Assembly: GCA_963677495.2 (NCBI GenBank)
Contig: CAXXOU010000004.1
Coordinates: 544,001 to 608,000, forward strand
DNA from: Candidatus Cloacimonadales bacterium
Lineage (GTDB): Bacteria > Cloacimonadota > Cloacimonadia > Cloacimonadales > JAFGVF01
DNA: 64,000 nucleotides
Direction: 5' to 3'
Below are positions 24,069-54,445 of this stretch, piece after piece. Under the pieces are notes generated by a model that was not told the DNA's origin, ran no database searches, and worked only from the letters and a program-made list of their open reading frames with translations. The translations under genes were made by a program, and so were the position numbers. Every line of letters begins with the position of its first letter. Within the stretch, counting starts at the first letter, position 1.

Positions 24069-25148
24069 CTAAAACGCTTCTTTGATAATGAAGTAGAATC
24101 CGAAGGAGTTTCGACCCATAGCTAAATCAAGTCTTAGATTAATCTTGTCCTCCGGAATGAGTCTGAAGCGTCCACCAATACCAAAAGTAGCTTTTATGTC
24201 TTTTCTTTCAATATCGTCAAATTCAGAGTAGATAGTTCCAAGATTTGCAAAAGCAACTGCACCCCATTTCTTATAAAACATGTTTCTATACTCAAGTTGA
24301 TATACTAATGAGTTTCTATCTCTGAAACGACCTTCATAGAAACCACGCATTCTCTCATCGCCACCTAGGGAAGACAGAAACATAAATGGGACATTATGTG
24401 ATACATTGCTTGAATAAATCTGATTGGCAATAACTTGGTTGTCTTTGATTGGGAAGAACTTCTTGAAATCAAGAATGAGATTATTATATTCGTAATCACT
24501 ACCTAATTCCTCTCTATAAGTTAGATATCTAACACCGAAGTAATGACCTTTTGTTGGGAAGTTGACATTATTACGACGTTCATAATCCAATCTGAAACCA
24601 AGCCCTAATTGCTGATACTTGAAATTATCATCAATATCTTCATTTTGTATGTAGTCATAATCTTTAACATCATCCATAGTGAAATTACTCCAGTCAACTA
24701 TGAAACCCCTGCTGAGATTATCAACAAAGAATGATGGAGTCGTAGCTTCTACTGTGATTTGTTGCTTATAGTACTTATAAACAATCTCATCATCTTCACT
24801 CGTTCTTGGACCCATTCCAAAGTAGCTATCATCATTGTTCTCGAAGTTTAGGGTTGCAAGTAAACGCATACGCCAAAGGCTTAAATTCAAATCAGGAACC
24901 AAACTGGCTGAATAGTAATTTTTAAAAGAGTAGAAACCTGCAATAGCTACTTCAGAAGTATTGTAGCTATTATCTTGCTCAGGCATTCTGAAGTAAATAC
25001 CCCCACCAAAACCGAGAGCAAAGCTTGTCTCCGGCTTGTAAAAGCCAAATGGAAAGCCAACAAATCTATAGCTCTTTTCTCTCTTCTCAGTTGCACCTAG
25101 CATAGTAACTATTTGTAGTATTATTAAAATATATATGATTTTTCTCAT
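24069..25148 (-). CDS. Omp85/BamA-superfamily outer-membrane beta-barrel lacking POTRA domains
   Basis: Signal peptide; LGGDERMRGFYEGRFRD lid motif; INLRLDLAMG; C-terminal EAF. Confidence 0.85.
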   Translation of the reverse strand: MRKIIYILIILQIVTMLGATEKREKSYRFVGFPFGFYKPETSFALGFGGGIYFRMPEQDNSYNTSEVAIAGFYSFKNYYSASLVPDLNLSLWRMRLLATLNFENNDDSYFGMGPRTSEDDEIVYKYYKQQITVEATTPSFFVDNLSRGFIVDWSNFTMDDVKDYDYIQNEDIDDNFKYQQLGLGFRLDYERRNNVNFPTKGHYFGVRYLTYREELGSDYEYNNLILDFKKFFPIKDNQVIANQIYSSNVSHNVPFMFLSSLGGDERMRGFYEGRFRDRNSLVYQLEYRNMFYKKWGAVAFANLGTIYSEFDDIERKDIKATFGIGGRFRLIPEDKINLRLDLAMGRNSFGFYFIIKEAF

Positions 25149-25221
25149 TGTGTACATCCTTTGCTCTACATATTAACCAACTATTTCCTACTAACAAATA
25201 TTTGCATAGTGTTTTTTGAGT

Positions 25222-36642: not shown

Positions 36643-39354
36643 ATGAAGAAGATCCTGACGCTATTTATTTTTATAACTATCTTAACTTCTATGTGGGCTC
36701 ATATGACCTATTATGAGACTACTTTAACTCAACCTGACGGTACTGAGTTTGAAGTTACAATAACCGGTGACCAGTACTTTCGTTCAGTTGCGGATAAGGA
36801 GAATTATACTCTTATTGTTGAACCTAAGACAGGGGAGTGGATGTATGCAATGAAAGGAAGAGATGGTTTAGTACCAAGTCCTTACAAACAGGGTACTATT
36901 GACCCATCTACTATAGGAATTGAACCCGGTTTAGCATACTCAACGAATCAGATAAATAAGAGAGTTGATGAGATGGAAGAGTTCTATTCTGCTAACAGCC
37001 AGTCAAGGACACCAAATACAGGTACTTTCAATAATCTTGTTGTCTTCATACGCTTTTCCGGTGAATCTGAGTTTAATCAGACACTTAGTACATACACAGA
37101 TATGATTAGTGATACAACTCCCGGTGCTAACTCCATGATTAACTTCTTCCAGGAAGCTTCATACAACCAGTTAACTATCCAATCACATTACTATCCACCT
37201 ACTTCAACAAGTTACGTTGTCTCTTATCAGGATACATATCCAAGAAGTTATTTTCAACCGTATAGTGGTTCGAACACTAATGGTTATAACGGAGATGATG
37301 AGCGTGGAGAGCGTGAATTTGCACTCTTACAAAGAGCAGTGAACTATATCGACAGCTATGTCCCTACTTCATTGAACATTGATGCAGATAACGATGGATA
37401 TGTAGATAATATTGTGTTTATTGTTAAAGGTAACACAGACGGTTGGTCAGACCTTTTATGGCCACATAGATGGGTGTTATATGGATTGAATGTATATCTT
37501 AATGGGGATAGAGTTTGGGACTTCAATTTCCAGTTACAAAATCATTTAGTTAGTAGCGGTAACGGCGTTATGTGTCATGAAATGTTCCATTCAGTCGGGG
37601 CTCCTGACCTTTATCACTATAGTCAGGACAATATGGATCCTGTGGGACAATGGGATCTTATGGAGGCTACAACTAATCCGCCACAACACATGTTGATGTA
37701 TATGAAATACAGGTATGGACTTTGGGTTAATAATATACCTGAAATTACAACAAGTGGAACCTACACATTAGCTCCAAGCATGGATAGTGCGAATAACTGC
37801 TATAAGATAGCTTCGACGGACTCAGATGAATACTATGTTTTAGAGTATCGCAAAATGGAAGGAACCTTCGAGAGTAGTTTACCCGGTGAAGGTCTGGTGA
37901 TTTATAGAATCAATACAAATGTTGATGGAGAGGGTAATAGAAATGGTCCTCCGGATGAAGTATACGTTTATCGTCCAAACGGAACTTTAACTGCAAATGG
38001 TAATTCAAGTGCAGGTGTCTTCAACGCATCTTATGGAAGAACCGAGATTAATGATTACACAAATCCAAACGGTTTCCTTTCTGACGGTTCACTAGGTGGT
38101 TTAAACATATCACAAGTAACAACAGCGGGAAATACTATATCATTCTATGCTAATATTGGTGGAACAGGTGCACCAGATGTATCAGTATCACCAACTTCAT
38201 TATCAGCATCTCTACCCCCTGATGCAACTGGTACTCGAACAGTTAGAATTACCAATAATGGTACTGCACCGTTAACTTATAACATTAGCCTACAAGATGG
38301 AACCAGGAACTCAGGTGGTCCAACAACTAGTGGTTACTACTGGCTTGATAGTGCTGAAGCTAATGGACCTGCTTATGTCTGGAATGATATAAGTTCAAGT
38401 GGAACAGAGATTAACTTCACATCAGATGACCAGATCTCTTCAACTATCAACTTAGGTTTTAGTTTCCCATATTACGAAAATAGCTATTCATCTCTAGCAG
38501 TATGTGGTAATGGTTTCCTTAGTTTCTCAGGTACAGATACAGAGTGGAGTAATGAGGATATACCTGATAGTAGTACACCAAATAGTTATATTGCTCCTTT
38601 CTGGGATGATTTAAGTCCACAACAAAGTGGTTCAGTTCATTATTATAGCGATACTGTCAATCAGCGCTTTATTGTACAGTTTACAAATGTACCGCATTAT
38701 TACACTGTAACCGGAACATATACTTTCCAAGTTCACCTGTATGCAAACGGTGAAATCTATTTCTACTATAACAATATGCAAGATACTGTTGATAGTGCAA
38801 CAATTGGAATGGAGAACAGTGATGGCTCTGAAGGTCTTAAGATTGCTTATAATCAAAGCTATGTAACTAACAATAGAGCAGTTCTTATCAGTAATGTTAA
38901 TTTCATACAAGATGATGTTGATTGGGCTGATGCAACTCCAACTGTTGGATCAATAAACCCGAATCAGTATGAGGATGTTACTATTAATATTGATACAGCA
39001 GGACTGAGTGCCGGTAGTAATTATACAGCATCAATTGTGATTAATTCCAATGATAGTGATCAACCATCGATTACTGTACCATTATACCTAGCAGTCACAG
39101 GTTCCTTGGATGCACCTGCAAACGCAACTGCAAGAGTAGTCAATGGACAGATGCAACTGAAATGGTCACCGGTAGCGGGAGCAAGTTCCTATAACGTGTT
39201 TATGCAGAACCCAAGTAATGGTACTTATTACAACAGAAATACTTATGGTACTTTTGGCACAGAAGGTGGTTATGTGACTTGGACAACTATCTTCAACTTA
39301 GGAAATGTCAGTTGGGACAGAGCTTTCTTCTACATTAAAGCAGTAGCTGAATAG
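36643..39354 (+). CDS. Secreted M6-family (immune inhibitor A-like) metalloprotease with a nidogen-like domain
   Basis: Signal peptide; TQPDG propeptide; HEMFHSVGAPDLY (HExxHxxGxxD); VGQWDLM Met-turn; EYYVLEYR; IAPFWDDL. Confidence 0.9.
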   Translation: MKKILTLFIFITILTSMWAHMTYYETTLTQPDGTEFEVTITGDQYFRSVADKENYTLIVEPKTGEWMYAMKGRDGLVPSPYKQGTIDPSTIGIEPGLAYSTNQINKRVDEMEEFYSANSQSRTPNTGTFNNLVVFIRFSGESEFNQTLSTYTDMISDTTPGANSMINFFQEASYNQLTIQSHYYPPTSTSYVVSYQDTYPRSYFQPYSGSNTNGYNGDDERGEREFALLQRAVNYIDSYVPTSLNIDADNDGYVDNIVFIVKGNTDGWSDLLWPHRWVLYGLNVYLNGDRVWDFNFQLQNHLVSSGNGVMCHEMFHSVGAPDLYHYSQDNMDPVGQWDLMEATTNPPQHMLMYMKYRYGLWVNNIPEITTSGTYTLAPSMDSANNCYKIASTDSDEYYVLEYRKMEGTFESSLPGEGLVIYRINTNVDGEGNRNGPPDEVYVYRPNGTLTANGNSSAGVFNASYGRTEINDYTNPNGFLSDGSLGGLNISQVTTAGNTISFYANIGGTGAPDVSVSPTSLSASLPPDATGTRTVRITNNGTAPLTYNISLQDGTRNSGGPTTSGYYWLDSAEANGPAYVWNDISSSGTEINFTSDDQISSTINLGFSFPYYENSYSSLAVCGNGFLSFSGTDTEWSNEDIPDSSTPNSYIAPFWDDLSPQQSGSVHYYSDTVNQRFIVQFTNVPHYYTVTGTYTFQVHLYANGEIYFYYNNMQDTVDSATIGMENSDGSEGLKIAYNQSYVTNNRAVLISNVNFIQDDVDWADATPTVGSINPNQYEDVTINIDTAGLSAGSNYTASIVINSNDSDQPSITVPLYLAVTGSLDAPANATARVVNGQMQLKWSPVAGASSYNVFMQNPSNGTYYNRNTYGTFGTEGGYVTWTTIFNLGNVSWDRAFFYIKAVAE

Positions 39355-40553: not shown

Positions 40554-43136
40554 ATGAAAAAGATTGTATTGTATATTCTATGTTTAATGCCTTTAATATT
40601 ATATTCAACAATTTGGCATGTGAATCAAGATGGAACAGGAGATTTCGTTTCTATCCAAGCTGCTGTGAACAATGCGAATAATGATGATACAATTTTGATT
40701 CATGAGGGTGTCTATTATGAACATGTGCAAACAAGTAACAAACCTTTAACATATGCAAGTTTATTCTATCTGGATAGTGATGAATCGCATATTGGTAATA
40801 CAATTTTGGATGGGCAACACTCGCATCCGCTAATGACACATGATAATGATGTTTTCGGGAGTAACATATCCATTATTGGGTTAACATTTAGGAATGGGAA
40901 TAGAGAGGAAGCTACAGATACGTACTGTGGCGGAGGTGCTATAGGAGTTCAAAGAGCTACGCTTACATTAAACGACTGTAGTATTTACAATAACTATGGG
41001 ATTATTGGAGGTGGAGTATTCACTCGAAACTGCCAAGTCTTTCTTGCTGGTAATTCGATAAGAAATAATAGAGCGTTTACTGCAGGTGGTGGTGTATCTT
41101 TTATCTTTAATGGAGGAGATAGTTATCCAGTCATCTTTGATGGAATTAATTTGAATAGTTTTTACTCAAATCTTTGTTGGTTTGGTACTGATATGAATCT
41201 TTATCAAATCAATGAGGAACACATCAGCGAGATTGTAGCAGATACTTTGAGTGTTGCAGAATACGATAATTACTGCAATGTTGTAAAAATAAGATTAGGA
41301 TCAACACACAGTAACCTTCCAGTTAATGCAAATACTGAAACTCTTCCTCGTGTTGAGTCCAATCTTTATGTTGCTCCTTGGGGTGATGATAATAATGATG
41401 GGTTAACATCTTTTTCTCCTTTCAAGTCGATAATGCAAGCGTGTATGATTATTTCTCCTAGAGTTGATAGTACTCTAATTATATATTTGCTACCTGGAGA
41501 ATATAATAACTCTAATCAAAGATGTCTACCTGTAAACGTAAGAGATAATACTATCATTTCAGGAGAATCTCCAGAAACAACTATCATCAATTGTGACCAG
41601 ATGACTAGTGCTTTTATTAACAGAGTCGGATCATGCAATTTTGAAATTGAGAATCTATCAATAATAAACTGTAGTGTCGGTGCTGATAATTATTATTCTT
41701 CTATTAGTCTTAATACTTCTCAGTATCCATCAAAAGTTAAAATTCGAAACTCCAAATTTTATAATGACTACATGTATCAAAGCACAGAAGCTCAATTTTA
41801 CGTTAATGTTGTCGGTGTCACGTTGGATATATGTGATACAGAATTTGGTAACGAAAACTTGGAAGCCTTGATTCCTCAAAAATCTGTCTTTTGTAATGAA
41901 GACTATTTTTCTCAAGATTTTAACAGTATAAGTAATTGCACATTTTATGGGCAAAATGAGACTATTTGTTTTAGTTCTCAATTCAATTCGAACTTGCTCA
42001 TTTCAAATTGTTTATTTGATTATTCTCAAACTTATAACTACGAGGCAGATCCGTTTCTTGTGAGATATGGAATAGCAATTGAAGGAAAGGTTGATGCTAA
42101 TATTATCAATAATACATTTTACGGAAATCATCCAGCTGGGCAATTAGATGGTCTAATTACGATCATATATTCAAATTATGATACAGGTGGGAATAATGTT
42201 AATGTTAAAAATAATATAATGATTGATAATTTTACTCCTACCAGTAATAACTCAGTGTATGTAGATAATCACTATGGTCCTTGGGCAACAAATGTTAATG
42301 TAGGTAACAATTTAGTCTTAGGAGGGGAAAGCACAGTTGGTTATCCCAATTGGGAAGAAGTGACTTTTAACTACGAAGATACGAACATTGATACAATACC
42401 TCATTTCACAGGATATGGAGTAAACAGATTTATGCTGGATGATGATTCTCCTTGTATAGATGAAGGTACACTGAATCTACCTGATGGATTCGAACAACCT
42501 GAAACTGATTTGGTAGGTAATCCTCGTGTGCATGGTGAGAGTATAGATATGGGTTGTTATGAATGGCAAGGGAATGTAGCTGATTTCACAATGCAGGCAA
42601 TGGGGAATGTGTTCCCTATTGATGTTGTGTTTACTCCACACTACAACTTCCCAATTGATACAATTGCCTGGGACCTTGATCTTGATGGTGTGATTGATAG
42701 CTATGAGATGAATCCAGTCTGGTCATATCCTGATTTCTCTGGACATAATGTTGGCATGTACATAAATGATGGGGAAGCTATTGAGATTAAGTATGACTGC
42801 ATACAGCCTACTACCCCGATATTAGAAGAAACGAACGATACACCTGAAGCTAATGAGTTATTAGCTTGTTATCCTAATCCCGTGCGAATCTCAACTGGTA
42901 ATGTTATACTGAAGTACAATGTCAAAGATGTTGGAAACGCAGAGTTGAAGGTATACAATATCAAAGGTCAAATGGTGAAATCCATTAAGGTTAAAAGTCA
43001 ACGTAAAGGGCGTAATACTATCTTCTGGTATCTTACTGATAATCGGGGTGTGCATGTCTCTTCGGGAGTGTATCTCTACAATCTTGAACAGAATGGTGAA
43101 AGTATAGGTAAAGGTCAGATAACGGTGGTGAAATAG
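40554..43136 (+). CDS. Secreted parallel beta-helix (pectin-lyase-like/DUF1565) protein with PKD-like and FlgD/T9SS-like C-terminal domains
   Basis: Signal peptide; DGTGDFVSIQAAV, GGGAI/GGGV repeats, LYVAPWGDDNNDG..PFKSI, SPCIDEG...IDMGCYE, YPNP...VYNIKGQ...SSGVY. Confidence 0.8.
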   Translation: MKKIVLYILCLMPLILYSTIWHVNQDGTGDFVSIQAAVNNANNDDTILIHEGVYYEHVQTSNKPLTYASLFYLDSDESHIGNTILDGQHSHPLMTHDNDVFGSNISIIGLTFRNGNREEATDTYCGGGAIGVQRATLTLNDCSIYNNYGIIGGGVFTRNCQVFLAGNSIRNNRAFTAGGGVSFIFNGGDSYPVIFDGINLNSFYSNLCWFGTDMNLYQINEEHISEIVADTLSVAEYDNYCNVVKIRLGSTHSNLPVNANTETLPRVESNLYVAPWGDDNNDGLTSFSPFKSIMQACMIISPRVDSTLIIYLLPGEYNNSNQRCLPVNVRDNTIISGESPETTIINCDQMTSAFINRVGSCNFEIENLSIINCSVGADNYYSSISLNTSQYPSKVKIRNSKFYNDYMYQSTEAQFYVNVVGVTLDICDTEFGNENLEALIPQKSVFCNEDYFSQDFNSISNCTFYGQNETICFSSQFNSNLLISNCLFDYSQTYNYEADPFLVRYGIAIEGKVDANIINNTFYGNHPAGQLDGLITIIYSNYDTGGNNVNVKNNIMIDNFTPTSNNSVYVDNHYGPWATNVNVGNNLVLGGESTVGYPNWEEVTFNYEDTNIDTIPHFTGYGVNRFMLDDDSPCIDEGTLNLPDGFEQPETDLVGNPRVHGESIDMGCYEWQGNVADFTMQAMGNVFPIDVVFTPHYNFPIDTIAWDLDLDGVIDSYEMNPVWSYPDFSGHNVGMYINDGEAIEIKYDCIQPTTPILEETNDTPEANELLACYPNPVRISTGNVILKYNVKDVGNAELKVYNIKGQMVKSIKVKSQRKGRNTIFWYLTDNRGVHVSSGVYLYNLEQNGESIGKGQITVVK

Positions 43137-43470: not shown

Positions 43471-43560
43471 TGGTGCTGAAGAAGGGACTTGAACCCCCAC
43501 GTCCTAATTTCGGACACTAGAACCTGAATCTAGCGTGTCTACCAATTCCACCACTCCAGC
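43471..43560 (-). tRNA. tRNA-Leu(CAG)
   Basis: Minus strand GCTGGAG...GGAATTGGTAGAC...CTAGA-TTCAGGT-TCTAG, long variable arm, GGTTCAAGTCC T-arm, CTTCAGC-A-CCA. Confidence 0.95.
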
Positions 43561-43759
43561 ATGAGTGTATTACAGATATTTTTGAACCCTTACTATGTCA
43601 ATAGAAATCTTAACAGTAAAATAGCTACTAATCACTTTGATTATAGGTCAGAGAGTATTGATAGTGAACTAATTTCAATAATATATCAGATTTTCCTTGC
43701 AATATAAAAAATCATAGTGAAAATACGTATTACCAAATCTATAAATCTGTGAGGTGACT

Positions 43760-45043
43760 ATGAGTGAAGCTTTCAATGCCTTTGAGATGGTTCAAAAGCA
43801 ATTTGATTCTATTGCTGATAAACTTGATTTGAACAGTGCAGCAAGAGATTTTCTGAGAAACCCTATGCGAGAATACCATTTCCTTATTCCTGTTAAGATG
43901 GATGATGGTTCAACCAAAGTGTTTAAAGGTTTTAGAATTCAGCACAATGATGCTTTAGGCCCAGCTAAAGGAGGAGTTCGATTTCACCCACTAGAAACAG
44001 TTGATTTAGTCAGAGCTCTAGCAATGTGGATGACTTGGAAAACCTCAGTTGTAGATCTGCCTTTAGGTGGGGGATATGGGGGTGTTATCTGCGATCCTCA
44101 CCATTTATCAATGAGAGAACAGGAGCTGATATGTCGAGGTTGGGTTAGACAGCTTGGTGATAATATAGGACCGTTGAGGGATATACCGGCACCTGATATT
44201 ATGACTTATAGTCAACATATGCTGTGGATTCTTGATGAGTATGAGATGATGCATGGGAAGAAACTTCCGGGTATGATTACAGGCAAACCTGTAGAGTTGG
44301 GTGGTTCATTAGGTAGGACAGAATCGACAGGATACGGACTGATGTTTACAGTACGGGAAGCATTAAGAGAATTAAAGATTCGACCTGATACTACAACAGC
44401 TGTGTTCCAGGGATTTGGTAATGTAACACAACATGCGATTAAGCTTTATAACCAATTAGGTGGTACTGTTCTAGGTGTATCCTCCTGGAACCCTAAACAG
44501 CATACTGCAACACTATATATGAAACCGGAAGGAATAAACCTGAAAGAACTTCAAGAGATAACAGATAGATTTGGAAGCATTGATTGTGATAAAGCTGAAG
44601 AGTTGGGCTATGAACTACTTCCCGGTGACAAATGGATTGAACAGGAATGTGATATACTTGTTCCTTCAGCATTAGAAAACCAGATTACTGTGGAGAATGT
44701 CGGACTCATCAATAAACAGGTTAGAATAATAGCTGAGGGAGCAAATGGACCAACAAGTCCTGCTGCAGACGATATTCTCATGGATAGAGGAATCTTCGTT
44801 ATCCCTGATGTTCTTTGTAATGCCGGTGGAGTTACATGTAGCTATTTCGAGCAGGTTCAGTCAAACATGAACTACTACTGGTCTAAGGATGAAGTTATCA
44901 GCAAGCTGGATGTTAAACTGACTAAAGCATACCATAAGGTTGCTGAACTAGCTCGAAGGAAAAAGCTTTATATGCGTGAAGCAGCCTATATGATCGCAGT
45001 TGACAGAGTAGTACGGGCAGCACAAGAAAGAGGGTGGATATAA
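43760..45043 (+). CDS. Glu/Leu/Phe/Val dehydrogenase homolog, probably catalytically inactive (catalytic Lys replaced by Tyr)
   Basis: GPAKGGVRFHP, MTWK, PAPD, ITGKP..LGGS.GR, EGANGP, NAGGVTCSYFE retained; GG(A/G)KGG reads GGGYGG (TAT at 44075-44077); alternative GTG start at 43754. Confidence 0.9.
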   Translation: MSEAFNAFEMVQKQFDSIADKLDLNSAARDFLRNPMREYHFLIPVKMDDGSTKVFKGFRIQHNDALGPAKGGVRFHPLETVDLVRALAMWMTWKTSVVDLPLGGGYGGVICDPHHLSMREQELICRGWVRQLGDNIGPLRDIPAPDIMTYSQHMLWILDEYEMMHGKKLPGMITGKPVELGGSLGRTESTGYGLMFTVREALRELKIRPDTTTAVFQGFGNVTQHAIKLYNQLGGTVLGVSSWNPKQHTATLYMKPEGINLKELQEITDRFGSIDCDKAEELGYELLPGDKWIEQECDILVPSALENQITVENVGLINKQVRIIAEGANGPTSPAADDILMDRGIFVIPDVLCNAGGVTCSYFEQVQSNMNYYWSKDEVISKLDVKLTKAYHKVAELARRKKLYMREAAYMIAVDRVVRAAQERGWI

Positions 45044-46782
45044 TGAATGAGAAAATGAAATCAGGTCAAAGATTTGATAGATTAAGTGGATTCTTTTCAG
45101 ATACTTTCAGCTACATAGGTAGGGGAGAACCGGGAGGTAAAGCTTCGGGTTTAGCATTCATGCAGGATGTTATTAAGAAGAGATTTCCTGATAATGAGTT
45201 TGATGGAATTAAGATCAATATCCCGAGTATGACAGTTCTCCTTAGTGGTGTATTTGAAGATTTTATGGAGGATAACAATCTCTATGAAATAGCACTTTCT
45301 GATGCGTCTGATGTAGAGATTGCTCTTGAGTTTCAAAGAGCTTCATTAGGAGCAATATACACCGGTGATCTTAGAAGCATTATTGAAAGCATACACCAAC
45401 CTTTAGCTATTCGCTCTTCAAGTATCTTCGAGGATTCAATAGACGACCCCTTTGCCGGTGTCTATGAAACTAAAATGATACCTAATAATCAGATAGATAA
45501 AGATCAAAGGTTTAGAGTATTAATGGAAGCAATTAAGTTTGTATATGCTTCTCTCTTCTTTAAAAACTCTAAGGAGTACTTTCTCTCATTAAACAGAGAT
45601 ATTCGTGATGAGAAGATGGCAATCATAATTCAGGAAGTTGTTGGTAATAGGCATGGTGACCTTTTTTATCCTACAATCTCCGGTGTTGTTAAATCGTATA
45701 ATTTCTACCCAACAAACAATGCAACTCATGAAGAAGGGATAGCTACACTTGCTCTTGGTTTGGGGAAAACCGTTGTAGAAGGGGAGAAGGCTTGGAGTTA
45801 CTCACCTATGCACCCAACAGCACCACCCCCATTTAACAATAATCACGATATATTGAAATACACACAAACTGAGTTCTGGTCAATAAATATGAATCAGGTT
45901 TGCTGTTACGACTCTACTCAGGAGACTGAGTATTTAAGCTACCAATCAATTTACGATGCCGAAGAACATGATACACTTAAGCATATCTGCTCTACGTTCG
46001 ATAGTTTAAACGATAGAATAACTATAGGAACTGCGTATGCCGGTTCACGAATCATTGACTTTTCACCCCTGCTCAAGCTTGACATGATACCTTTGAATCC
46101 TCTTATCAAAGAGTTAATGAAGGTTTGCGAAGAGGAGAGTGGAAATAAGGTCGAGATGGAATTTGCGATGACAATTGATCCTGAAGGATATGATAAACCA
46201 AGGTTTGGATTTCTACAGCTAAGACCAATAAGTATTAGTGATAAGATTGTTGATATTAACGAGAAGTTGTACAATGCAGATAATATGCTCATTAAATCAG
46301 AACAAGTAATGGGAAATGCACAGATTGATAGTATAATTGATATTGTGTTTGTGAAACCTGATTGCTTTGACCCAAAAGCGTCTTTAGAAGTTGCTATGGA
46401 CCTAGCTGAGATAAATGCTGAGTTGATACAGAACAAGAAGCAGTACCTTCTAATGGGATTTGGCAGATGGGGAACATCTGATCCTTGGATGGGAGTACCG
46501 ATTAAATGGTCTCAAATATCAGGAGCAAAAGTCATTGTTGAAGCAATCTTACCTCAAATGAGATTTGATTTCAGTCAGGGATCACATTTCTTCCACAACA
46601 TGACAGCTCATAATGTTATATATTTCTCAGCAAATCTGGAGATGAGTAATGCTATAGACTGGGATTGGCTGAAATCTCATGAAGTTATTGAAGAAACAGA
46701 CTATATTCTTCATGTACGAACGAAGAAACCAATAGAAATATATGCAGATGGGCGTTCGGGTAAAGGAGTAATTCTTAAATGA
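45043..46782 (+). CDS. PEP-synthase/PPDK-type ATP-grasp protein with divergent phospho-His swivel domain and no pyruvate-binding domain
   Basis: GGKASGL, AIRSSS..ED....FAG.Y, IQEVVG, GLG..VV, VEMEFA, FLQLRPI; C-terminal AKVIVE...QGSHFF; start overlaps the gdh stop (TAATG). Confidence 0.85.
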   Translation: MNEKMKSGQRFDRLSGFFSDTFSYIGRGEPGGKASGLAFMQDVIKKRFPDNEFDGIKINIPSMTVLLSGVFEDFMEDNNLYEIALSDASDVEIALEFQRASLGAIYTGDLRSIIESIHQPLAIRSSSIFEDSIDDPFAGVYETKMIPNNQIDKDQRFRVLMEAIKFVYASLFFKNSKEYFLSLNRDIRDEKMAIIIQEVVGNRHGDLFYPTISGVVKSYNFYPTNNATHEEGIATLALGLGKTVVEGEKAWSYSPMHPTAPPPFNNNHDILKYTQTEFWSINMNQVCCYDSTQETEYLSYQSIYDAEEHDTLKHICSTFDSLNDRITIGTAYAGSRIIDFSPLLKLDMIPLNPLIKELMKVCEEESGNKVEMEFAMTIDPEGYDKPRFGFLQLRPISISDKIVDINEKLYNADNMLIKSEQVMGNAQIDSIIDIVFVKPDCFDPKASLEVAMDLAEINAELIQNKKQYLLMGFGRWGTSDPWMGVPIKWSQISGAKVIVEAILPQMRFDFSQGSHFFHNMTAHNVIYFSANLEMSNAIDWDWLKSHEVIEETDYILHVRTKKPIEIYADGRSGKGVILK

Positions 46783-49700
46783 TCCATAGTGGTAACAACC
46801 ATAATCAGTTGGAATCTCAGTTAACAGAAAGACGTAAAGAACTTGCTTGTATCCATAAGATGATAGAAATAACATCTGATTACTCTTCAGACTTTAGTGT
46901 TATATTTAATAGAATACTAGAGATTATCCCCGCAGGATGGCAGTATACTGATACCTGCTTTGCAGAGATTGAGTATATGAATAGTATATACTGTCTTCGC
47001 AAAGATCTTACACCAAAGTATTCCCAACAGAAGTCCTTGAGTATGAATGACAACTATTTCGGTGAGATTAAAGTCTACTACTCTGAAGTTCCCAAAGGCT
47101 TCGAAATAGCACCATTTCTTGATGAAGAGGTAGCATTACTTAGTACTTTGGCAGAGATGTTATCAACATATCTAGTTGTCAGAACTTTTACAGAGAACCT
47201 TGAAACACCTGGGACAAATCCAGAGCTGGAACATAAAGATTGGAAGATAGTACTCAAAATGCTCCAGGATACGGATTATAGATTGTATCTAAAAGTAGCA
47301 CGCAAGTTGATTAACCTTCTTTATCAAAGAGGTATCCCAGAAGTTAAGGAGATATACTACTCTACAGGAATAACAAGATCAGAATCTGACTCAGAGGATA
47401 TCCTCGATGCAAACAAACCTTTGAAAAAGCAAGATTATCTTGATATGGAGGTTGTTAGTAAGAAGGTGTTCGAAATCGCTGAGAATTGTTTACCGAATGA
47501 GGAAGTTCTTGAGTATATTCATAAATGGATTCAAGAGGATAAGTTAAGTTTCCTAATCACTGCATTAGAGGATAAGTATACGTCTCTTGCCGAGCTACAA
47601 GATGTGATTGCAAGATATCAGCATCTTAAGATAAGCAAGGAGAGCTTATCACCATATTCTCAGTTAAATCTGAAAGTGTTACTTATTCAACGACTCTTTA
47701 CATCGCAGTTAGAATTTATTAGAATAGCAAAAAATTACATCCAGATAGAAGATTTCTATGATGTACTTCAACATACTATTTCTCCAAAGAACTCTCATGG
47801 AAGATTAGGAGGTAAAAGTACCGGTTTATTCTTCGCGCATAATATCATAAAGAGCGAGACAGACCTTGAATTTCAGAAAGGTATAAAGACCCCCAAGAGT
47901 TGGTATATAACTTCTGACGCCATGCAGTCTTTTGTGCACTATAACAATCTAGAAGAGGTTATTGAACAGAAATATAAGGATATTGAGCAGATAAGGGCTG
48001 AATATCCCAATATTGTACAGATGTTCAAGAACTCCTATTTCCCACATGATATTGCTAAAGAGCTTTCCCAAGCTCTTGATTCATTCGGAACTTCACCAAT
48101 AATTGTCAGAAGCTCATCATTATTGGAAGATAGTTTTGGTACATCCTTTTCCGGAAAATATAAAAGTCTATTCTTAGCTAATCAGGGCAATAAAAAGGAA
48201 AGGTTAAGTGCTTTAATGGATGCCATTGCTGAAGTATATGCTTCTGTAATTGCTCCTGATCCTATCGAGTATCGAAAGGACCATGGACTTGTAGACTTCC
48301 ATGAAGAGATGGCTATCATGATTCAAGAGGTTGTTGGCACAAAAGTAGGAAACTATTTCCTTCCTGCTTTTGCAGGAGTAGCATTCTCCAATAATGAGTT
48401 CAGATGGTCACCTAGAATCAAAAGGAACGATGGTTTAGTAAGATTAGTTCCGGGCTTAGGGACTAGGGCAGTAGATAGAGTCAGTGATGATTATCCTGTT
48501 TTAGCTTCACCGGGACAGCCTGGTATTAGAGTTAACGCTTCACCGGATGAGATACTAAAATATTCACCTAAGTTCCTAGATCTGATAAATCTCGAAACTA
48601 ATACTTTTGAAACTCTCCCAATTCAAAAAGCACTGAAACTGTTTGAAGATGATTTCCCAATGCTAAACAGAATCTTTAGCGTTAATGAGAATGGTTTTAT
48701 TCACCAAAAAGCAGTATTCAATATTGACTTTGAGAAAGATGACTTAATAGTTACCTTCAGGTCTTTGATGACTGATACAAATTTTATGAAACGGATAAAG
48801 AGAATCTTAGATGTTCTTGAAGACAAAATGTCAACTCCAGTGGATATTGAGTTTGCAGTAATCAACAATGATATCTATCTTCTTCAATGCAGACCTCAAT
48901 GTTTCTCTAAAGAGGTTGAGCCTGCTCCAATTCCTCAGGATATTCCGGAAAAAGAGATTCTGTTTACAGCTCGAAAACATATCTCCAATGGCAGAATCCC
49001 GGAAGTGACACATCTTGTTTATGTAGACCCTACAGAATATACACAGTTAGAGACCTTAGAACAGTTAAAATCTGTTGGTAGGTGTGTCGGAGAGTTGAAT
49101 TCGGTTCTACCAAAGAAGAAATTTATACTGATCGGGCCCGGGAGATGGGGAAGTAAAGGTGATATTAAACTGGGTGTTGATGTCTCCTATTCTGAAATAA
49201 GCAATACATCTGCCTTAATTGAGGTGGCTAAAGAACAAGCAAGCTTTGCTCCTGATCTTTCATTTGGTACTCACTTCTTTCAAGATCTTGTAGAATCAAC
49301 AATTAGGTACATCCCCTTATATCCAGATGAGAAGGATAATGTCTTTAATACTGAGTTCTTCAAGAAGAGTGAGAGTATACTTCCAACCTTGTTACCGAAA
49401 TACTCTGAGCTAGGGAACTGTATAAAAGTTATAGATATTCCGAAAGAAACTGATGGTAATGTACTTAAAATCTTTATGAATGCTGATTTGGAACAGGCAA
49501 TAGCATATTTTGGCGTAGCAGATAACCGAAAAAGAAGTTCAAGTAAGGCTTATTATGAAGATGAAAATACTGATAACTTCTGGTTATGGAGATTACAAAT
49601 GGCAGAATTTCTTGCCTCACAATTAGATGCTAAAAGATATGGTGTGGTTAATTTATACATTTTTGGTAGCGTTAAAAACGCTACTGCCGGACCGGGTAGT

Positions 49701-49940
49701 GATATAGATCTTTTGGTTCACTTCAGAGGAAACGAGATTAAAAAGCAACAGTTACTAGCATGGTTTGATGGATGGAGTAGATGTCTTGGTAGAATGAATT
49801 ACCTAAGAACCGGTTATAAAACTGATGGTCTTCTTGATGTACACATCATAACGGATCAAGATATCTCTGACAAAGACAGCTTTGCAATCAAAATTGGGGC
49901 TGTAACTGATGCAGCAAAACTACTTAAGGTGCGCAAATGA
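46779..49940 (+). CDS. Multidomain protein: GAF-like sensor + PPDK-type ATP-grasp + phospho-His-like domain + pol-beta nucleotidyltransferase
   Basis: N-terminal ERRKELACI...IPAGWQY...GEIKVYY...PFLDEE; LGGKSTGL, VRSSSLLED...FSGKY, DIEFA, LLQCRP; FGTHFFQ; C-terminal IFGSVKN......SDIDLLV...LLDVH; ATGA overlap. Confidence 0.85.
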   Translation: MIHSGNNHNQLESQLTERRKELACIHKMIEITSDYSSDFSVIFNRILEIIPAGWQYTDTCFAEIEYMNSIYCLRKDLTPKYSQQKSLSMNDNYFGEIKVYYSEVPKGFEIAPFLDEEVALLSTLAEMLSTYLVVRTFTENLETPGTNPELEHKDWKIVLKMLQDTDYRLYLKVARKLINLLYQRGIPEVKEIYYSTGITRSESDSEDILDANKPLKKQDYLDMEVVSKKVFEIAENCLPNEEVLEYIHKWIQEDKLSFLITALEDKYTSLAELQDVIARYQHLKISKESLSPYSQLNLKVLLIQRLFTSQLEFIRIAKNYIQIEDFYDVLQHTISPKNSHGRLGGKSTGLFFAHNIIKSETDLEFQKGIKTPKSWYITSDAMQSFVHYNNLEEVIEQKYKDIEQIRAEYPNIVQMFKNSYFPHDIAKELSQALDSFGTSPIIVRSSSLLEDSFGTSFSGKYKSLFLANQGNKKERLSALMDAIAEVYASVIAPDPIEYRKDHGLVDFHEEMAIMIQEVVGTKVGNYFLPAFAGVAFSNNEFRWSPRIKRNDGLVRLVPGLGTRAVDRVSDDYPVLASPGQPGIRVNASPDEILKYSPKFLDLINLETNTFETLPIQKALKLFEDDFPMLNRIFSVNENGFIHQKAVFNIDFEKDDLIVTFRSLMTDTNFMKRIKRILDVLEDKMSTPVDIEFAVINNDIYLLQCRPQCFSKEVEPAPIPQDIPEKEILFTARKHISNGRIPEVTHLVYVDPTEYTQLETLEQLKSVGRCVGELNSVLPKKKFILIGPGRWGSKGDIKLGVDVSYSEISNTSALIEVAKEQASFAPDLSFGTHFFQDLVESTIRYIPLYPDEKDNVFNTEFFKKSESILPTLLPKYSELGNCIKVIDIPKETDGNVLKIFMNADLEQAIAYFGVADNRKRSSSKAYYEDENTDNFWLWRLQMAEFLASQLDAKRYGVVNLYIFGSVKNATAGPGSDIDLLVHFRGNEIKKQQLLAWFDGWSRCLGRMNYLRTGYKTDGLLDVHIITDQDISDKDSFAIKIGAVTDAAKLLKVRK

Positions 49941-50809
49941 TAAAAGCTTTGTTTACTTCTGATTTACATGGAAACGAGTTTAAGTACGAGTTCTTGTTTG
50001 AAAACATAGTAAAGCACGTACCGGAAGCTGTGTTTATCGGTGGGGATATTCTGATACCATTTAGCAAGATTAAAGACCAGATATCAGGTAAATCTGATAG
50101 TTTTCTGAACGATTACCTGAGAGTTGAGTTGCTTAAGTTAAAAGAACGATTAAGGAATAAATATCCTGAAATATATGTGATAATGGGTAATGATGATAAT
50201 AAATTTTCTGAAGAGATACTTGATAGCAAGATGTTCGAAGGACTATTGCATTATTGTCATTTCAAGAAGCTTAAGTTTAAAAATTGGGAAGTAGTAGGAT
50301 ATAACTTTGTACCACCAACTCCGTTCATGAATAAGGATTGGGAGAAATTCGATGTATCAAGATTTGTGGATGTTGGATGTTTAGCTCCTTTTGATGGTTA
50401 TCATGACCCTTCAATACCGGAGTATGACCTTAAGTTCTCAACAATCAAAGAAGACTTTGAAACTCTGTTTGATGAAGTAGATACATCCAAATTAATTCTA
50501 TTAGCTCATACTCCACCATATAAATCTAAACTTGATAGGGCTGACCTGGATGGTGTGATGGTTGATCATGTTCCACTTGATGTTTACATAGGATCTATAG
50601 CTCTTCAACGTTTACTTGAAAAACAGAAGTTCTACTTAACGCTTCATGGTCACGTTCACGAATCGACGAGATTAACAGGTGATTATCAGGACACGATTGG
50701 TGAGAACCTATCTATGAATGGTGCATCAGAGCACAATGAAGCAAGTATCATTCTTTTCGATTTGGAGAATCCTACTGAATCTACGAGATTAACTAAGCTT
50801 AAGCCTTAA
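49937..50809 (+). CDS. Calcineurin-like metallophosphoesterase
   Basis: SDLHG, GGD, GNDD, AHTPP, HGHVHE motifs; ATGA overlap with the upstream gene. Confidence 0.9.
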   Translation: MIKALFTSDLHGNEFKYEFLFENIVKHVPEAVFIGGDILIPFSKIKDQISGKSDSFLNDYLRVELLKLKERLRNKYPEIYVIMGNDDNKFSEEILDSKMFEGLLHYCHFKKLKFKNWEVVGYNFVPPTPFMNKDWEKFDVSRFVDVGCLAPFDGYHDPSIPEYDLKFSTIKEDFETLFDEVDTSKLILLAHTPPYKSKLDRADLDGVMVDHVPLDVYIGSIALQRLLEKQKFYLTLHGHVHESTRLTGDYQDTIGENLSMNGASEHNEASIILFDLENPTESTRLTKLKP

Positions 50810-51901: not shown

Positions 51902-52291
51902 ATGGAAGATTTATTAGTTATTTTACAAGGGATGGCTATTGGTTCAATATTCCCGGCAGCAATTGGGATTGCAGTTTATTATAGAAAGATTCCAATTGAT
52001 AAGTATCATAGATGGTCTGTAAAAGATATAGGAGAAGATAAAGAAATTGTTTTGAAGAATCTGAATAAACTGAAACTTAAGAGAAGGATAAACAATATAA
52101 CTGATTATGGAAAGGTAATTAGCTTCAAGGATAGAGTAACCGGTTTTAGTTGGGGGAATATGTACGTAATTGAGTTTAAAGAAAACGGGCAGCACAAGCT
52201 ATATTATAATCGAATTCTTCCAACGGTAATGTTGTATGCAAGTCGTGCGACAAGAATAGCTAATCAATTGAAATCAAAGTTATCTATGTGA
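51902..52291 (+). CDS. Hypothetical membrane-anchored protein
   Basis: RBS ggagg, one N-terminal hydrophobic segment, basic tail; AT-rich. Confidence 0.6.
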   Translation: MEDLLVILQGMAIGSIFPAAIGIAVYYRKIPIDKYHRWSVKDIGEDKEIVLKNLNKLKLKRRINNITDYGKVISFKDRVTGFSWGNMYVIEFKENGQHKLYYNRILPTVMLYASRATRIANQLKSKLSM

Positions 52292-54445
52292 GAACTCGAA
52301 GATATCGTGATTGAATCCAAAGTTTATAAAGTATTCCGGTTCAGTCTCTTCATTTGAACCTATCCCAACTTTTATAGGTCCCATAATAGTGTCATACCCG
52401 ATTGTTAGAGAAGCTCCATTGACGAAATCACTCCAAGGATCCCAATCATCACTATCAGAGTAGGTTATAACACCAGCGTAGCCCATTAAGTATAGCTTTT
52501 TAAATACATTCCAGTTTAAACCAAACCCGATTGTCTTAAATATTGGGGCAGAAATCTGTTTTGCACGATACCCTGGGAAACTATCAACTCCACCAATATA
52601 AAACTCTTGATATTGGGTTGTTTCTTCGTATCTTTGATATGATCCGTACTCACTGCTGACGCTTAGCGAGAGCCTATCCACAAGTTTATCGCAGAATTTA
52701 ATTTTGCCATGAATCTTTTGTGTTTTAACATCACTTAAATAATCAGGATGAGCGTAGTTATATTTGAGCATGAACAGAGAGCCTGACATAGGGAAACTAA
52801 TATTATCAATAGACTCTTGGTGCACCTTTAGACCAACACCAAAAGATTTGGTCTCCTCATCTAATGAAGTTATATCATTACCTTGAATAATATCAAAATT
52901 GTTATAAAAGAAAAATCCTTCAAGGTTGAAGAGTTGTTCAAAATAGATACCTATTCCGGTAGTAGCACCAAACTCCTGTACTAAGAAACTATCTGTTCTC
53001 CAAAAGTTGCTATCATAGGTGTATAATTTAGATTCCTTATAATATGGGAAAACTCTGAAGTATAGGCCACTGTACCTACCATAGTTCTTAACAAAATCAG
53101 CTTGAACTTCATTTCTACCACCAAGTTCAACTTCCAACAGTAGCTGCGAGTTTTTAACTAGATAGTTAGTGAAATCAAAAACTACACCGGCACTTAAGTC
53201 ATCATAATTGTTATAAGATAGATTCAATGAGAGATGTTTTTGTGGCTTCTCTTTGAGTATAACATAGAGGTATGGTTTTGCGCGATCTTGGATTAATCTT
53301 GGATAGATGTATTCGAACAATCCGGTACTGTAAGCTTTGTTGAAAGCATTAATTATATCTTGTACAGAGTACTTAACATTTTTCTCAAGCTGTAAGAATT
53401 CACGAATCTGTAGAGATGTAAAACCTTTGTTACCTCTTACCTTTATCTTTTGGAAGCTGATTTCATTATATGTTGATAAAGTCGGACGAAACTTTGTAGG
53501 TTGAATCGCCTTTGTTTGAGCGAGTTTAGTTAGTATTTTGATATGCTTTCTAGCTTCCACTTCACCTATGTTGATAATCTCTTTCATCTTCTTGAACTGG
53601 AGATTATTAATACCGGTAAGACCCGGTTCTATAAGTAAGTTACAGCATTCAATAGATTTCTTAACATTTTCAGTAATTGTAATGTTCATTGCCTGGTCGA
53701 AGTTCTGAACAAAATTATTCTTTTCAGGATTCTGTTTAAGGTTACTGTTAACTTTAGAACCGATAACGAAATCAGCACCCATTTCTATAACTGTCTCACA
53801 TGGTAGGTTTTGGACTAAGCCACCATCAACATATAGATTGTTTTTGTAATCAAATGGTTCTAACAAACTTGGAGTGTTCATTGAAGCTCTGCAAACTTCG
53901 TGCAGGCTACCGGAATCAAACTTAACTATCTCTCCTGTTTTGAAGTTAGTTGCAACAGCATTAAAAGGGATTGGTAATGATGAAAATGTATTCATCTCGA
54001 AGTCCGGAGAAAAGAGCTCAAAGAGATGCATTTGTAACTGCTGACCATATTGCAATCCGGATGGTATTTCAGGTAAGAAATGCTTTGATAGAGGGACTTT
54101 AACATTACCATAAGGTTGCCAATGCTTTTGCATAATATGCTTGTCTGAACGATCTGCTGTATCATTAAATAGTAGATTTAGGCTACCGTCTAAGGCAAAC
54201 TTCTCAATCTCAATTGCAGAATATCCTTTGGCATATAGAGCCCCAATTAGTGAACCTATAGATGTACCGGATATATAGTCGGGTTTTAACCCTACTTCAT
54301 CAAGTACTTTAAGCACGCCTATATGTGCATATCCTCTAGCTCCACCGCCACTTAATGCCAATCCAATCTTCTGCTCACCTAGAAGAGGGGAGAATAAGAG
54401 TAGGAATAGTAAAAAGAGGGGTGAAGTTTTAAGCTTCACCCTCAT
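52280..54445 (-). CDS. Patatin-like phospholipase with POTRA and Omp85 barrel (PlpD/type Vd-like)
   Basis: LSGGGARG, GTSIG (Ser), VDGG (Asp), POTRA-like KIKVRGN...TGLFE, beta-barrel C-terminus. Confidence 0.88.
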   Translation of the reverse strand: MRVKLKTSPLFLLFLLLFSPLLGEQKIGLALSGGGARGYAHIGVLKVLDEVGLKPDYISGTSIGSLIGALYAKGYSAIEIEKFALDGSLNLLFNDTADRSDKHIMQKHWQPYGNVKVPLSKHFLPEIPSGLQYGQQLQMHLFELFSPDFEMNTFSSLPIPFNAVATNFKTGEIVKFDSGSLHEVCRASMNTPSLLEPFDYKNNLYVDGGLVQNLPCETVIEMGADFVIGSKVNSNLKQNPEKNNFVQNFDQAMNITITENVKKSIECCNLLIEPGLTGINNLQFKKMKEIINIGEVEARKHIKILTKLAQTKAIQPTKFRPTLSTYNEISFQKIKVRGNKGFTSLQIREFLQLEKNVKYSVQDIINAFNKAYSTGLFEYIYPRLIQDRAKPYLYVILKEKPQKHLSLNLSYNNYDDLSAGVVFDFTNYLVKNSQLLLEVELGGRNEVQADFVKNYGRYSGLYFRVFPYYKESKLYTYDSNFWRTDSFLVQEFGATTGIGIYFEQLFNLEGFFFYNNFDIIQGNDITSLDEETKSFGVGLKVHQESIDNISFPMSGSLFMLKYNYAHPDYLSDVKTQKIHGKIKFCDKLVDRLSLSVSSEYGSYQRYEETTQYQEFYIGGVDSFPGYRAKQISAPIFKTIGFGLNWNVFKKLYLMGYAGVITYSDSDDWDPWSDFVNGASLTIGYDTIMGPIKVGIGSNEETEPEYFINFGFNHDIFEFSHR

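Follow-up and report, generated by a model that had tools for sequence, protein, structure and literature searches.

The window analyzed here is a stretch of 64,000 nucleotides from the genome of a Candidatus Cloacimonadales bacterium (assembly GCA_963677495.2, contig CAXXOU010000004.1, positions 544,001 to 608,000). On its forward strand, at 43754..45043, lies a gene for a homolog of glutamate dehydrogenase (GDH) in which the position of the catalytic lysine is occupied by tyrosine. The gene comprises 429 codons from a GTG at 43754, and its translation, which includes VVDLPLGGGYGGVICD, contains both ELFV dehydrogenase domains: Pfam matches PF02812 (ELFV_dehydrog_N) at residues 37-164 (E = 1.7e-49) and PF00208 (ELFV_dehydrog) at residues 183-427 (E = 3.1e-67), the two-domain architecture that characterizes the GDH family. 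Because the database copy of the protein (P0002) has 427 amino acids and a GAGGTG lies just upstream of the ATG at 43760, this ATG is probably the true start. We count residues from the GTG, so that the substituted residue is Tyr108 here and would be Tyr106 in the shorter protein (2 is subtracted for numbering from the ATG).

The Substituted Site and the Rest of the Active Site

Tyr108 is encoded by TAT at 44075-44077 (forward strand), where solved GDHs have the lysine of GGGKGG. In a phmmer alignment it stands opposite the lysine of "lpygggkggi" in the solved GDHs 1gtm, 1euz, and 8zmu, and the replacement of Lys by Tyr that had been proposed in a first-pass annotation of the window is therefore borne out by both the open reading frame translation and the alignment. 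The protein thus lacks the catalytic lysine of the GG(G/S/A)KGG motif by which the family is recognized. Among proteins of solved structure, it is closest to the small hexameric GDHs of Pyrococcus (1gtm, E = 3.7e-117) and Thermococcus (1euz, E = 4.4e-117), both matched over their full length, as is Arabidopsis GDH1 (AtGDH1; 6yeh, E = 3.4e-87). According to the report on AtGDH1, the homologous lysine primes the water molecule that attacks the imine, an aspartate acts as the general base, and the lysine forms no Schiff base (PMC7326016). This contradicts the first-pass statement that the lysine forms a Schiff base with 2-oxoglutarate.

The remainder of the active site appears to be intact. The motifs GPAKGG, MTWK, GSLGR, and VTCSY and the Asp of PAPD are retained, as had been noted, and EGANGP and NAGGV are also kept. 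Asp148 (the general base, within PAPD), the carboxylate-binding residues Lys72 and Lys96, and Ser363 are present in all four Tyr-bearing sequences described below, and the window protein has the residues expected at the dinucleotide and nicotinamide sites (Gly220, Gly222, Asn223, Thr192, Asn331, and Asn356). Our statements about the structural roles of residues rest on motif register rather than on coordinates.

The glycine motif of the dinucleotide-binding fold (GFGNVT, 44411-44428, forward strand) had been regarded as altered, but it is intact and typical of the subfamily. Among 121 aligned sequences, the sixth residue of the motif is Ser in 72, Ala in 47, and Thr in 2, both of the latter being the window's own protein, and the other Tyr-bearing species have GFGNVA. 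GFGNVT thus reads as a conservative variant of the subfamily norm of GFGNVS or GFGNVA. In AtGDH1, Gly218, which by motif register would correspond to this sixth residue, is described as reaching the pyrophosphate by no more than backbone and water-mediated contacts (PMC7326016). A change is also found at Asn246-Pro247 (44489..44494, forward strand), where Lys-bearing relatives have Asp-Gln (149/153 and 153/153, respectively). This change is confined to the window genome (G000) and to that of a second species of the genus (G113). If the register to AtGDH1 Ser236-Asp237-Ile238, which we derived from the report on that enzyme (PMC7326016) and the alignment with 1gtm, is correct, the affected loop would follow the second Rossmann strand and lie next to the adenosine-ribose site.

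The window protein scores 450.9 bits against the NCBIfam model GdhA_Arch, which is below the equivalog cut-off of 750. This shortfall is a property of the subfamily, because Lys-bearing orthologues do not reach the cut-off either (477 and 493 bits); the Tyr forms score approximately 30-45 bits lower than these, and a Met form scores 376.

Distribution of the Tyrosine within the Genus

We compared the locus with Logan contigs from four sequencing runs, and these re-assemblies showed 0 differences over 43700-45100 at a depth of 10-27. The contigs come from runs of one sample, probably the source of the assembly, and so the agreement is not independent of the assembly. The first-pass argument that a sequencing error is unlikely because two base changes are needed also holds: the lysine codons of 37 Lys-bearing orthologues are AAA (24) and AAG (13), conversion of either to TAT or TAC takes two changes, and the sole sense intermediate encodes Asn.

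Of the 120 closest proteins in the database, the window protein's own entry, P0003 (86% identical), P0004 (85%), and P0046 (80%) have Tyr, and the other 116 have Lys. G113 and G112, two further species of the genus that are represented by independent assemblies, encode P0003 and P0004, respectively. P0046 is a metagenome protein whose last 262 amino acids are identical to the product of a truncated gene of a fourth species, G111. The G111 contig ends inside the gene before position 108, so the Tyr state of this species is deduced via P0046; a search of G111 with the N-terminal 168 amino acids found only a 35%-identical paralogue. On these alignments, all four species of the genus appear to carry Tyr. 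The codon is TAT in G000 and G112 and TAC in G113, a synonymous difference. Outside the genus, Lys occupies the site in 153/153 aligned relatives (not de-duplicated), which places the substitution far from chance variation.

We conclude from the sequence comparisons that Tyr108 is neither a sequencing error nor a private allele. The first-pass annotation had considered that the gene would be a private decaying allele if orthologs in the same operon all kept Lys. They do so outside the genus, but within it all four species keep Tyr, and the change is thus no private decaying allele.

Selection and Rate of Evolution

The Tyr form of the gene is under purifying selection: within the genus, reading frames are intact and dN is only 0.10-0.19 despite saturated synonymous sites (pS 0.71-0.85). 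It nevertheless evolves faster than its Lys-bearing orthologues when each is measured against the downstream genes O4 and O5, which are described below. The ratio of dN for GDH to dN for O5 is 1.04-1.13 in 5 pairs from the genus, versus 0.35-0.70 in 13 Lys-Lys pairs selected for similar divergence. When pairs with the same O5 identity are compared, GDH identity is 0.83-0.86 between Tyr forms versus 0.89-0.93 for Lys-Lys pairs, and Tyr-Lys pairs lie 0.05-0.09 under Lys-Lys pairs in every bin. Maximum-likelihood branch lengths for GDH and O5 sum to 0.854 and 0.855 within the genus and to 4.82 and 10.31 in the rest of the tree, a 2.1-fold relative acceleration, which is greatest on the branches leading to the window species and G113 (ratios of 1.3-1.5). 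The O4/O5 ratio stays at 1.0 in the genus (1.08 in the rest of the tree), and so the neighboring genes evolve normally. As a proxy for lowered expression we compared the effective number of codons (ENC) of GDH with that of O4/O5; the differences in the Tyr genomes (-0.7 to +0.2) lie inside the range of the Lys genomes (-9.8 to +2.5).

We examined the 208 alignment columns in which conservation among Lys forms is 97% or higher. In the Tyr clade, 192 are unchanged in all members and 16 are changed in at least one. The changes common to all members are A13V, I75V, T85L, I102L, K108Y, and G275S/T, and G181E, D246N, Q247P, and F353V are restricted to the window genome and G113. A number of the clade-specific changes fall in segments that line the active site (I75V, I102L, V149I, N152Y, V196L, and I197M). 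A migrated catalytic residue was looked for as well, and no Lys, Arg, or His has been gained in all members of the Tyr clade.

Loss of the Lysine in Other Lineages

The lysine has also been lost elsewhere in the subfamily. It is missing from 6 of 79 metagenome loci (Met in 3, Asn in 2, and Ser in 1), from 17 of 120 proteins most closely related to one Met form (Met in 14 and Ser in 3), and from 11 of 80 species-representative loci (Met in 8, Glu in 2, and Asn in 1), the last set being enriched because it was chosen by likeness to a Met form. Several of these counts come from similarity-chosen sets that contain related rows. Within the 80 loci, the Met forms belong to the Thermoanaerobaculales, Sulfomarinibacteraceae, Ignavibacteriales, and Anaerolineae, one of the Glu forms belongs to the Latescibacterota, and the Asn form belongs to the Bacteroidales. 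Representatives of clusters at 50% identity, typed by motif search (8 of 150 could not be classified), lack Lys in 10 of 142 cases (Met in 4, and Val, His, Tyr, Phe, Cys, and Arg in 1 each). The Tyr representative, P0329, is a distant protein of 413 amino acids that is 41% identical to the window protein and reads PLGGAYGAV at the site, independently of the genus. Phylogenetic reconstruction gave at least 4 losses (IQ-TREE, 120 rows) or 7 changes (FastTree, 206 rows, with some groupings poorly supported).

The other Lys-less forms are also under purifying selection. The two Glu forms (L180 and L186) differ with dN 0.008 and dS 0.10 (omega 0.08), and other Lys-less pairs have omega 0.07-0.30 with saturated dS; this codon analysis left out the Acidobacteriota Met forms L168, L175, L191, L194, and L219.

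The Met and Ser forms have gone on to lose residues of the nicotinamide and substrate sites. Asn223 (at the nicotinamide site, and by register Asn216 of AtGDH1) is present in 173/173 Lys forms, 4/20 Met forms, and 0/4 Ser forms; Thr192 is present in 172/173, 6/20, and 4/4, respectively; and Lys72 is present in 172/172, 10/20, and 4/4, being replaced by Trp in 9 of the Met forms. Arg76, Lys96, Arg188, Gly220, Gly222, and Ser363 are invariant in every class. Because erosion of Asn223, Thr192, and Lys72 is confined to Lys-less lineages, the residues for hydride transfer appear to have been freed from constraint only after loss of the lysine, and part of the ligand pocket appears to remain constrained. 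The four Tyr-clade sequences keep all of the residues that are eroded in Met and Ser forms, a pattern that fits a recent event.

Other GDHs in the Genome and the Phylum

A search for a canonical gdh elsewhere in the genome, as the first-pass annotation had suggested, identified two 450-amino-acid GDHs with MGGGKGG, approximately 43 kb and 572 kb away on the contig. Because these two canonical enzymes are present, cellular GDH activity does not depend on the Tyr copy. Neither is of the small type: the 450-amino-acid counterparts in G113 match the N-terminal 168 amino acids of the window protein at 34%, and we found no second small-type GDH at E ≤ 1e-60 in G000 or G113. Paralogues of the 450-amino-acid class occur in 227 of 232 Cloacimonadota genomes, yet within the phylum the lysine was lost only in this genus, and so redundancy alone does not explain the loss.

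Two further arrangements involving the 450-amino-acid class were seen in the phylum. In several genomes of family f12, a second GDH, of this class, lies 1.5-2.5 kb past the O5 orthologue on the same strand (G152:C54, G153:C168, G156:C3, G146:C130, G144:C25, and G147:C25), so that in these genomes the dikinase-like genes are bracketed by two different GDHs. Paralogues of O5 of approximately 990-1010 amino acids (30-34% identical over the PPDK_N region) are often found no more than a few kb from genes for GDHs of the 450-amino-acid class (G220:C2, G212:C27, G216:C32, G159:C204, G158:C166, G122:C1, G124:C43, G148:C28, G162:C157, and G033:C9).

The Operon and Its Surroundings

The GDH-like gene is the first of four translationally coupled genes on the forward strand. 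Its stop codon overlaps the ATG of O4 (TAATG, 45041-45045), and the O4/O5 and O5/O6 junctions are ATGA overlaps. O4 (45034..46782) encodes 582 amino acids (579 from the ATG at 45043) with a PPDK_N ATP-grasp domain (E = 3.5e-28). An AF2 model of the protein (pLDDT 85.4) has rifampin phosphotransferase (5hv1, E = 3.1e-14) as its top solved fold, followed by HpeI, PEP synthase, and PPDK. O5 (46779..49940) encodes a paralogue of O4 of 1053 amino acids, with PPDK_N (E = 4.4e-64) and a C-terminal NTP_transf_2 domain (E = 1.3e-07). The nucleotidyltransferase motif of O5 (GS...DIDL) is kept in at least 95% of aligned orthologues, and the protein has a weak match to the NCBIfam model MntA (E = 2.4e-4; 21 bits, where the cut-off is 60). 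Its extra N-terminal domain (model of residues 1-335, pLDDT 78) matches GAF domains only at E 0.03-1, so that a GAF-like identity is weakly suggested by the model and is best treated as a lead. O6 (49937..50809) encodes a calcineurin-like metallophosphoesterase of 290 amino acids (Metallophos, E = 3.3e-09).

The C-terminal parts of O4 and O5 share the signature G(F/P)GRWG ... (S/F)(Q/G)(G/T)HFF(H/Q)(N/D), and its His is invariant in aligned O4 orthologues and present in at least 95% of those of O5. This His could be a phospho-carrier residue that Pfam does not detect.

The operon's upstream limit is marked by a divergent tRNA-Leu(CAG) gene (43471..43560, reverse strand), which is followed by a terminator-like hairpin (43464-43438, reverse strand). 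An Rfam scan upstream of the GDH-like gene found the tRNA only and no riboswitch, and a promoter scan gave 28 hits versus 28.6 expected from shuffling, which is not above expectation.

The gene order is conserved well beyond the genus. GDH, O4, and O5 occur in this order in 39/39 fetched Cloacimonadota regions (picked because both genes shared one contig), and an orthologue of O6 is present in 25 of them. The GDH is Lys-bearing in 38 of these regions, the remaining one being that of the Tyr-bearing G113. Where at least 1 kb of sequence lies downstream, O4 or O5 adjoins the GDH in 49/65 metagenome loci and in 63/72 loci of species-representative genomes from many phyla. Operons of this kind in other genera and phyla begin with a Lys-bearing GDH. 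In Cloacimonadota, the metallophosphoesterase gene shares the strand of the operon and overlaps O5; in most metagenome loci of other lineages (L049-L128) it is convergent, on the opposite strand. In P0247, a longer relative (916 amino acids), the two GDH domains are listed in precomputed Pfam annotations together with HD, PAS, and receiver domains, which suggests that the GDH fold can be used as a module of a signaling protein.

Several other genes were noted in the window. Upstream of the operon on the forward strand are genes for a protein of 903 amino acids with an M6 metalloprotease domain (36643-39354) and a protein of 860 amino acids with a T9SS C-terminal sorting domain (40554-43136). 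On the reverse strand, a giant open reading frame of 3579 amino acids (25274-36013) lies 7.7 kb upstream of the operon and is followed by an Omp85-domain open reading frame (24069-25157); an open reading frame of 721 amino acids with patatin-like phospholipase and Omp85 domains is found at 52280-54445.

Discussion

We consider it probable, with moderate confidence, that the window protein is a young pseudo-GDH kept for a noncatalytic role. It has the hallmarks of a pseudoenzyme, in that it lacks a catalytic residue yet maintains its fold and reading frame under purifying selection, and the loss of activity is predicted from these. The lysine would have been replaced in the ancestor of one Cloacimonadota genus, probably from Lys through Asn to Tyr, and dehydrogenase activity would have been lost or lowered to a small residue, in line with the approximately 1.5% of activity kept by mutants of the homologous Lys80 of leucine dehydrogenase (PMC12018205). 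Selection would then have kept the protein for a second, noncatalytic job tied to the three cotranslated genes. That job would most likely be as a ligand-binding partner (for glutamate, 2-oxoglutarate, or NAD(P)H) or a scaffolding partner of O4-O6, that is, of two rifampin-phosphotransferase-like ATP-grasp paralogues, one of them with a sensor-like N terminus and a nucleotidyltransferase, and a metallophosphoesterase. We infer the loss of activity, the retention of ligand binding, and the physical or functional partnership with the neighbors. The diversity of the replacements across lineages suggests that a function has been lost, rather than that a new catalytic residue or acceptor site has been gained, and the fact that the operon partners have been kept and evolve at unchanged rates suggests that the protein still acts with or for them. 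The first-pass proposal of a ligand-binding pseudoenzyme therefore fits the fixation of Tyr, the purifying selection, the retained ligand residues, the repeated losses, and the later erosion confined to Lys-less lineages.

Several observations weigh against this interpretation. The other catalytic and ligand-binding residues of the Tyr clade are intact, as they would also be in a working enzyme. The changes that line the active site could represent adaptive remodeling rather than relaxation. Lys-less GDHs lie beside O4 or O5 in 16/16 loci, versus 96/121 Lys-bearing loci with room downstream, but with approximately 7 independent events the association is not significant, and we claim no statistical link between loss of the lysine and the operon. 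Finally, a search for GDH-PPDK_N fusions found none among 14 longer relatives, which is weak evidence.

The first of these observations bears on the possibility that the protein is still an oxidoreductase, either with weak residual GDH activity or with a changed chemistry in which the Tyr hydroxyl serves as a general acid or base, for example in NAD(P)H-dependent conversion of 2-oxoglutarate to 2-hydroxyglutarate without ammonia. In carbonyl reductases, Tyr serves as the catalytic acid. None of the four Tyr-clade sequences has lost Asn223, Thr192, Lys72, Lys96, Asp148, Asn331, Ser363, or any other substrate or cofactor residue; Tyr itself is conserved through a synonymous codon change; and the clade-specific substitutions cluster in segments that line the active site, including a second new Tyr, at 152, next to Asp148. 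Leucine dehydrogenase mutants altered at the homologous lysine are also described as keeping approximately 1.5% of activity (PMC12018205). Nevertheless, we regard continued oxidoreductase activity as unlikely, though as the most serious of the alternatives. The Met, Asn, Ser, Glu, Val, His, Phe, Cys, or Arg found at the site in other lineages resemble a loss of function, and older Lys-less clades go on to lose the Asn and Thr that bind nicotinamide. The Tyr clade evolves at approximately twice the normal rate without gaining a compensating Lys, Arg, or His, and the window genome and G113 already lack the otherwise invariant Asp246, Gln247, Phe353, and Gly181. The same acceleration and the same four lost residues, together with the two canonical paralogues, could instead be taken as signs of slow decay, in which the lysine was lost through redundancy with the two other GDHs and no function is left. 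We consider decay very improbable, because the frames are intact in four species with low dN at saturated synonymous sites, the Tyr codon is kept with a synonymous difference, 192 of the 208 highly conserved columns are unchanged throughout the clade, and translational coupling to O4 is retained. Moreover, the paralogues that would provide the redundancy are present in 227/232 genomes of the phylum, whereas this genus alone has lost the lysine.

Two further explanations assign the protein a regulatory role of a kind known from other systems. In one, which is slightly less probable still than decay, it would act like GdhA of Thermus thermophilus, forming mixed hexamers with a catalytic GDH and tuning its activity. 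Two reports describe GdhA as an inactive partner in GdhA/GdhB (bioRxiv 10.1101/2025.10.31.685773; PMC9570180), and the window genome encodes two active-looking GDHs. However, these are the only other GDHs, they are of the 450-amino-acid class and encoded at a distance, a second small-type GDH was not found in G000 or G113 at the threshold given above, and the conserved neighbors are dikinase-like rather than gdhB. In the other, Tyr108 would be a regulatory acceptor that is adenylylated, uridylylated, or phosphorylated by the neighboring nucleotidyltransferase or ATP-grasp proteins, with the phosphoesterase removing the added group. HepT is AMPylated on a Tyr by MntA, and the intact nucleotidyltransferase motif of O5, its weak match to MntA, and the co-encoded phosphoesterase would be in keeping with such a scheme. 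We give this explanation, which the first-pass annotation had raised as a speculation, the least weight of all. O4-O6 accompany Lys-bearing GDHs in all other genera, including 38/39 Cloacimonadota regions and most metagenome loci, and because the same genes accompany Lys-bearing GDHs the module cannot depend on the Tyr. Parallel lineages have Met, Asn, or Glu, which are unable to accept such groups. In GDH structures, the substituted position lies in the interdomain cleft, and O4, O5, and O6 show no change of rate in the genus. Pfam matches to O5 up to E 5 were PPDK_N, NTP_transf_2, Polbeta, MTPAP-like_central, and chance-level matches, with no GlnE or GlnD domain.

Beyond the window, we suggest tentatively, as a possibility that is less likely to be right than wrong, that the GDH of this widespread four-gene operon is a metabolite-sensing or scaffolding subunit of a GAF-dikinase-nucleotidyltransferase signaling machine, and not (or not only) the enzyme that the machine controls. 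Catalysis would then have been dispensable and would have been discarded independently many times (Y, M, N, S, and E). If this is true, approximately 7% of clusters of proteins annotated as small bacterial "glutamate dehydrogenases" (10/142 representatives) would be pseudoenzymes, and the Cloacimonadota Tyr form would be the youngest stage caught so far. The losses also constrain the role of the conserved GDH-linked module: if it survives when "its" enzyme has died, it is unlikely to serve only to switch the activity of that enzyme. Within a single large bacterial subfamily, the protein has stayed under selection through repeated losses of the catalytic lysine, and GDHs that are dead may therefore be scored as active when the metabolism of Cloacimonadota, Acidobacteriota, Chloroflexota, and others is reconstructed. 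Forms ranging from young (Tyr) to old (Met, with an eroded cofactor site) make up a natural series in which the path from dehydrogenase to pseudoenzyme can be studied.

Comparison with Known Systems

Full-text searches turned up no account of such Lys-less GDHs, the only precedents being pseudoenzymes of Thermus. In T. thermophilus, GdhA is reported to be a regulatory subunit, itself without catalytic activity, of a GdhA/GdhB hetero-oligomer (bioRxiv 10.1101/2025.10.31.685773; PMC9570180). The likeness lies in a GDH homologue without activity that is kept for regulation, the inactivity of the window protein being predicted. Unlike the Thermus system, the window genome has neither a catalytic partner of the same class nor an adjacent gdhB, and so the precedent that the first-pass annotation had invoked is only a loose parallel. 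A second precedent is ADLP of T. thermophilus, an alanine-dehydrogenase-like pseudoenzyme that is reported still to bind NAD(H) and to regulate a partner enzyme (bioRxiv 10.1101/2025.10.31.685773). It differs in belonging to the alanine dehydrogenase family and in having a CoA transferase as its partner, and binding and regulation were established experimentally for ADLP, whereas here they are predicted from sequence.

GlnE and GlnD, which modify Tyr residues in glutamine synthetase and PII, resemble the locus in that a domain with a nucleotidyltransferase fold is encoded beside a nitrogen-metabolism protein with an unusual Tyr. The comparison, drawn in the first-pass annotation, does not extend further. 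Pfam assigns the neighbors PPDK_N and a minimal NTP_transf_2 domain rather than the GlnE or GlnD families, and an acceptor Tyr would be conserved wherever its modifying enzyme is present, whereas Tyr108 is absent from all orthologues outside one genus and O4-O6 accompany Lys-bearing GDHs.

The leucine dehydrogenase mutants K80A, K80Q, and K80R are reported to retain approximately 1.5% of deamination activity, which 1 M ammonia raises to 20% (PMC12018205). Like the window protein, they are members of the ELFV superfamily in which the homologous general-base Lys has been replaced, but they were made in the laboratory in a working enzyme, whereas the Tyr of the window protein is natural, fixed in a genus, and bulky in the pocket. 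With the small hexameric GDHs (1gtm, 1euz, and 6yeh) the window protein has in common both ELFV domains, the carboxylate-binding Lys pair, the Asp that acts as general base, a GxGxxG-type motif, and, at the nicotinamide and substrate sites, the conserved Asn and Ser. Unlike them, it carries Tyr in place of the catalytic Lys, evolves approximately twice as fast as its Lys-bearing orthologues, and heads a dikinase-like operon.

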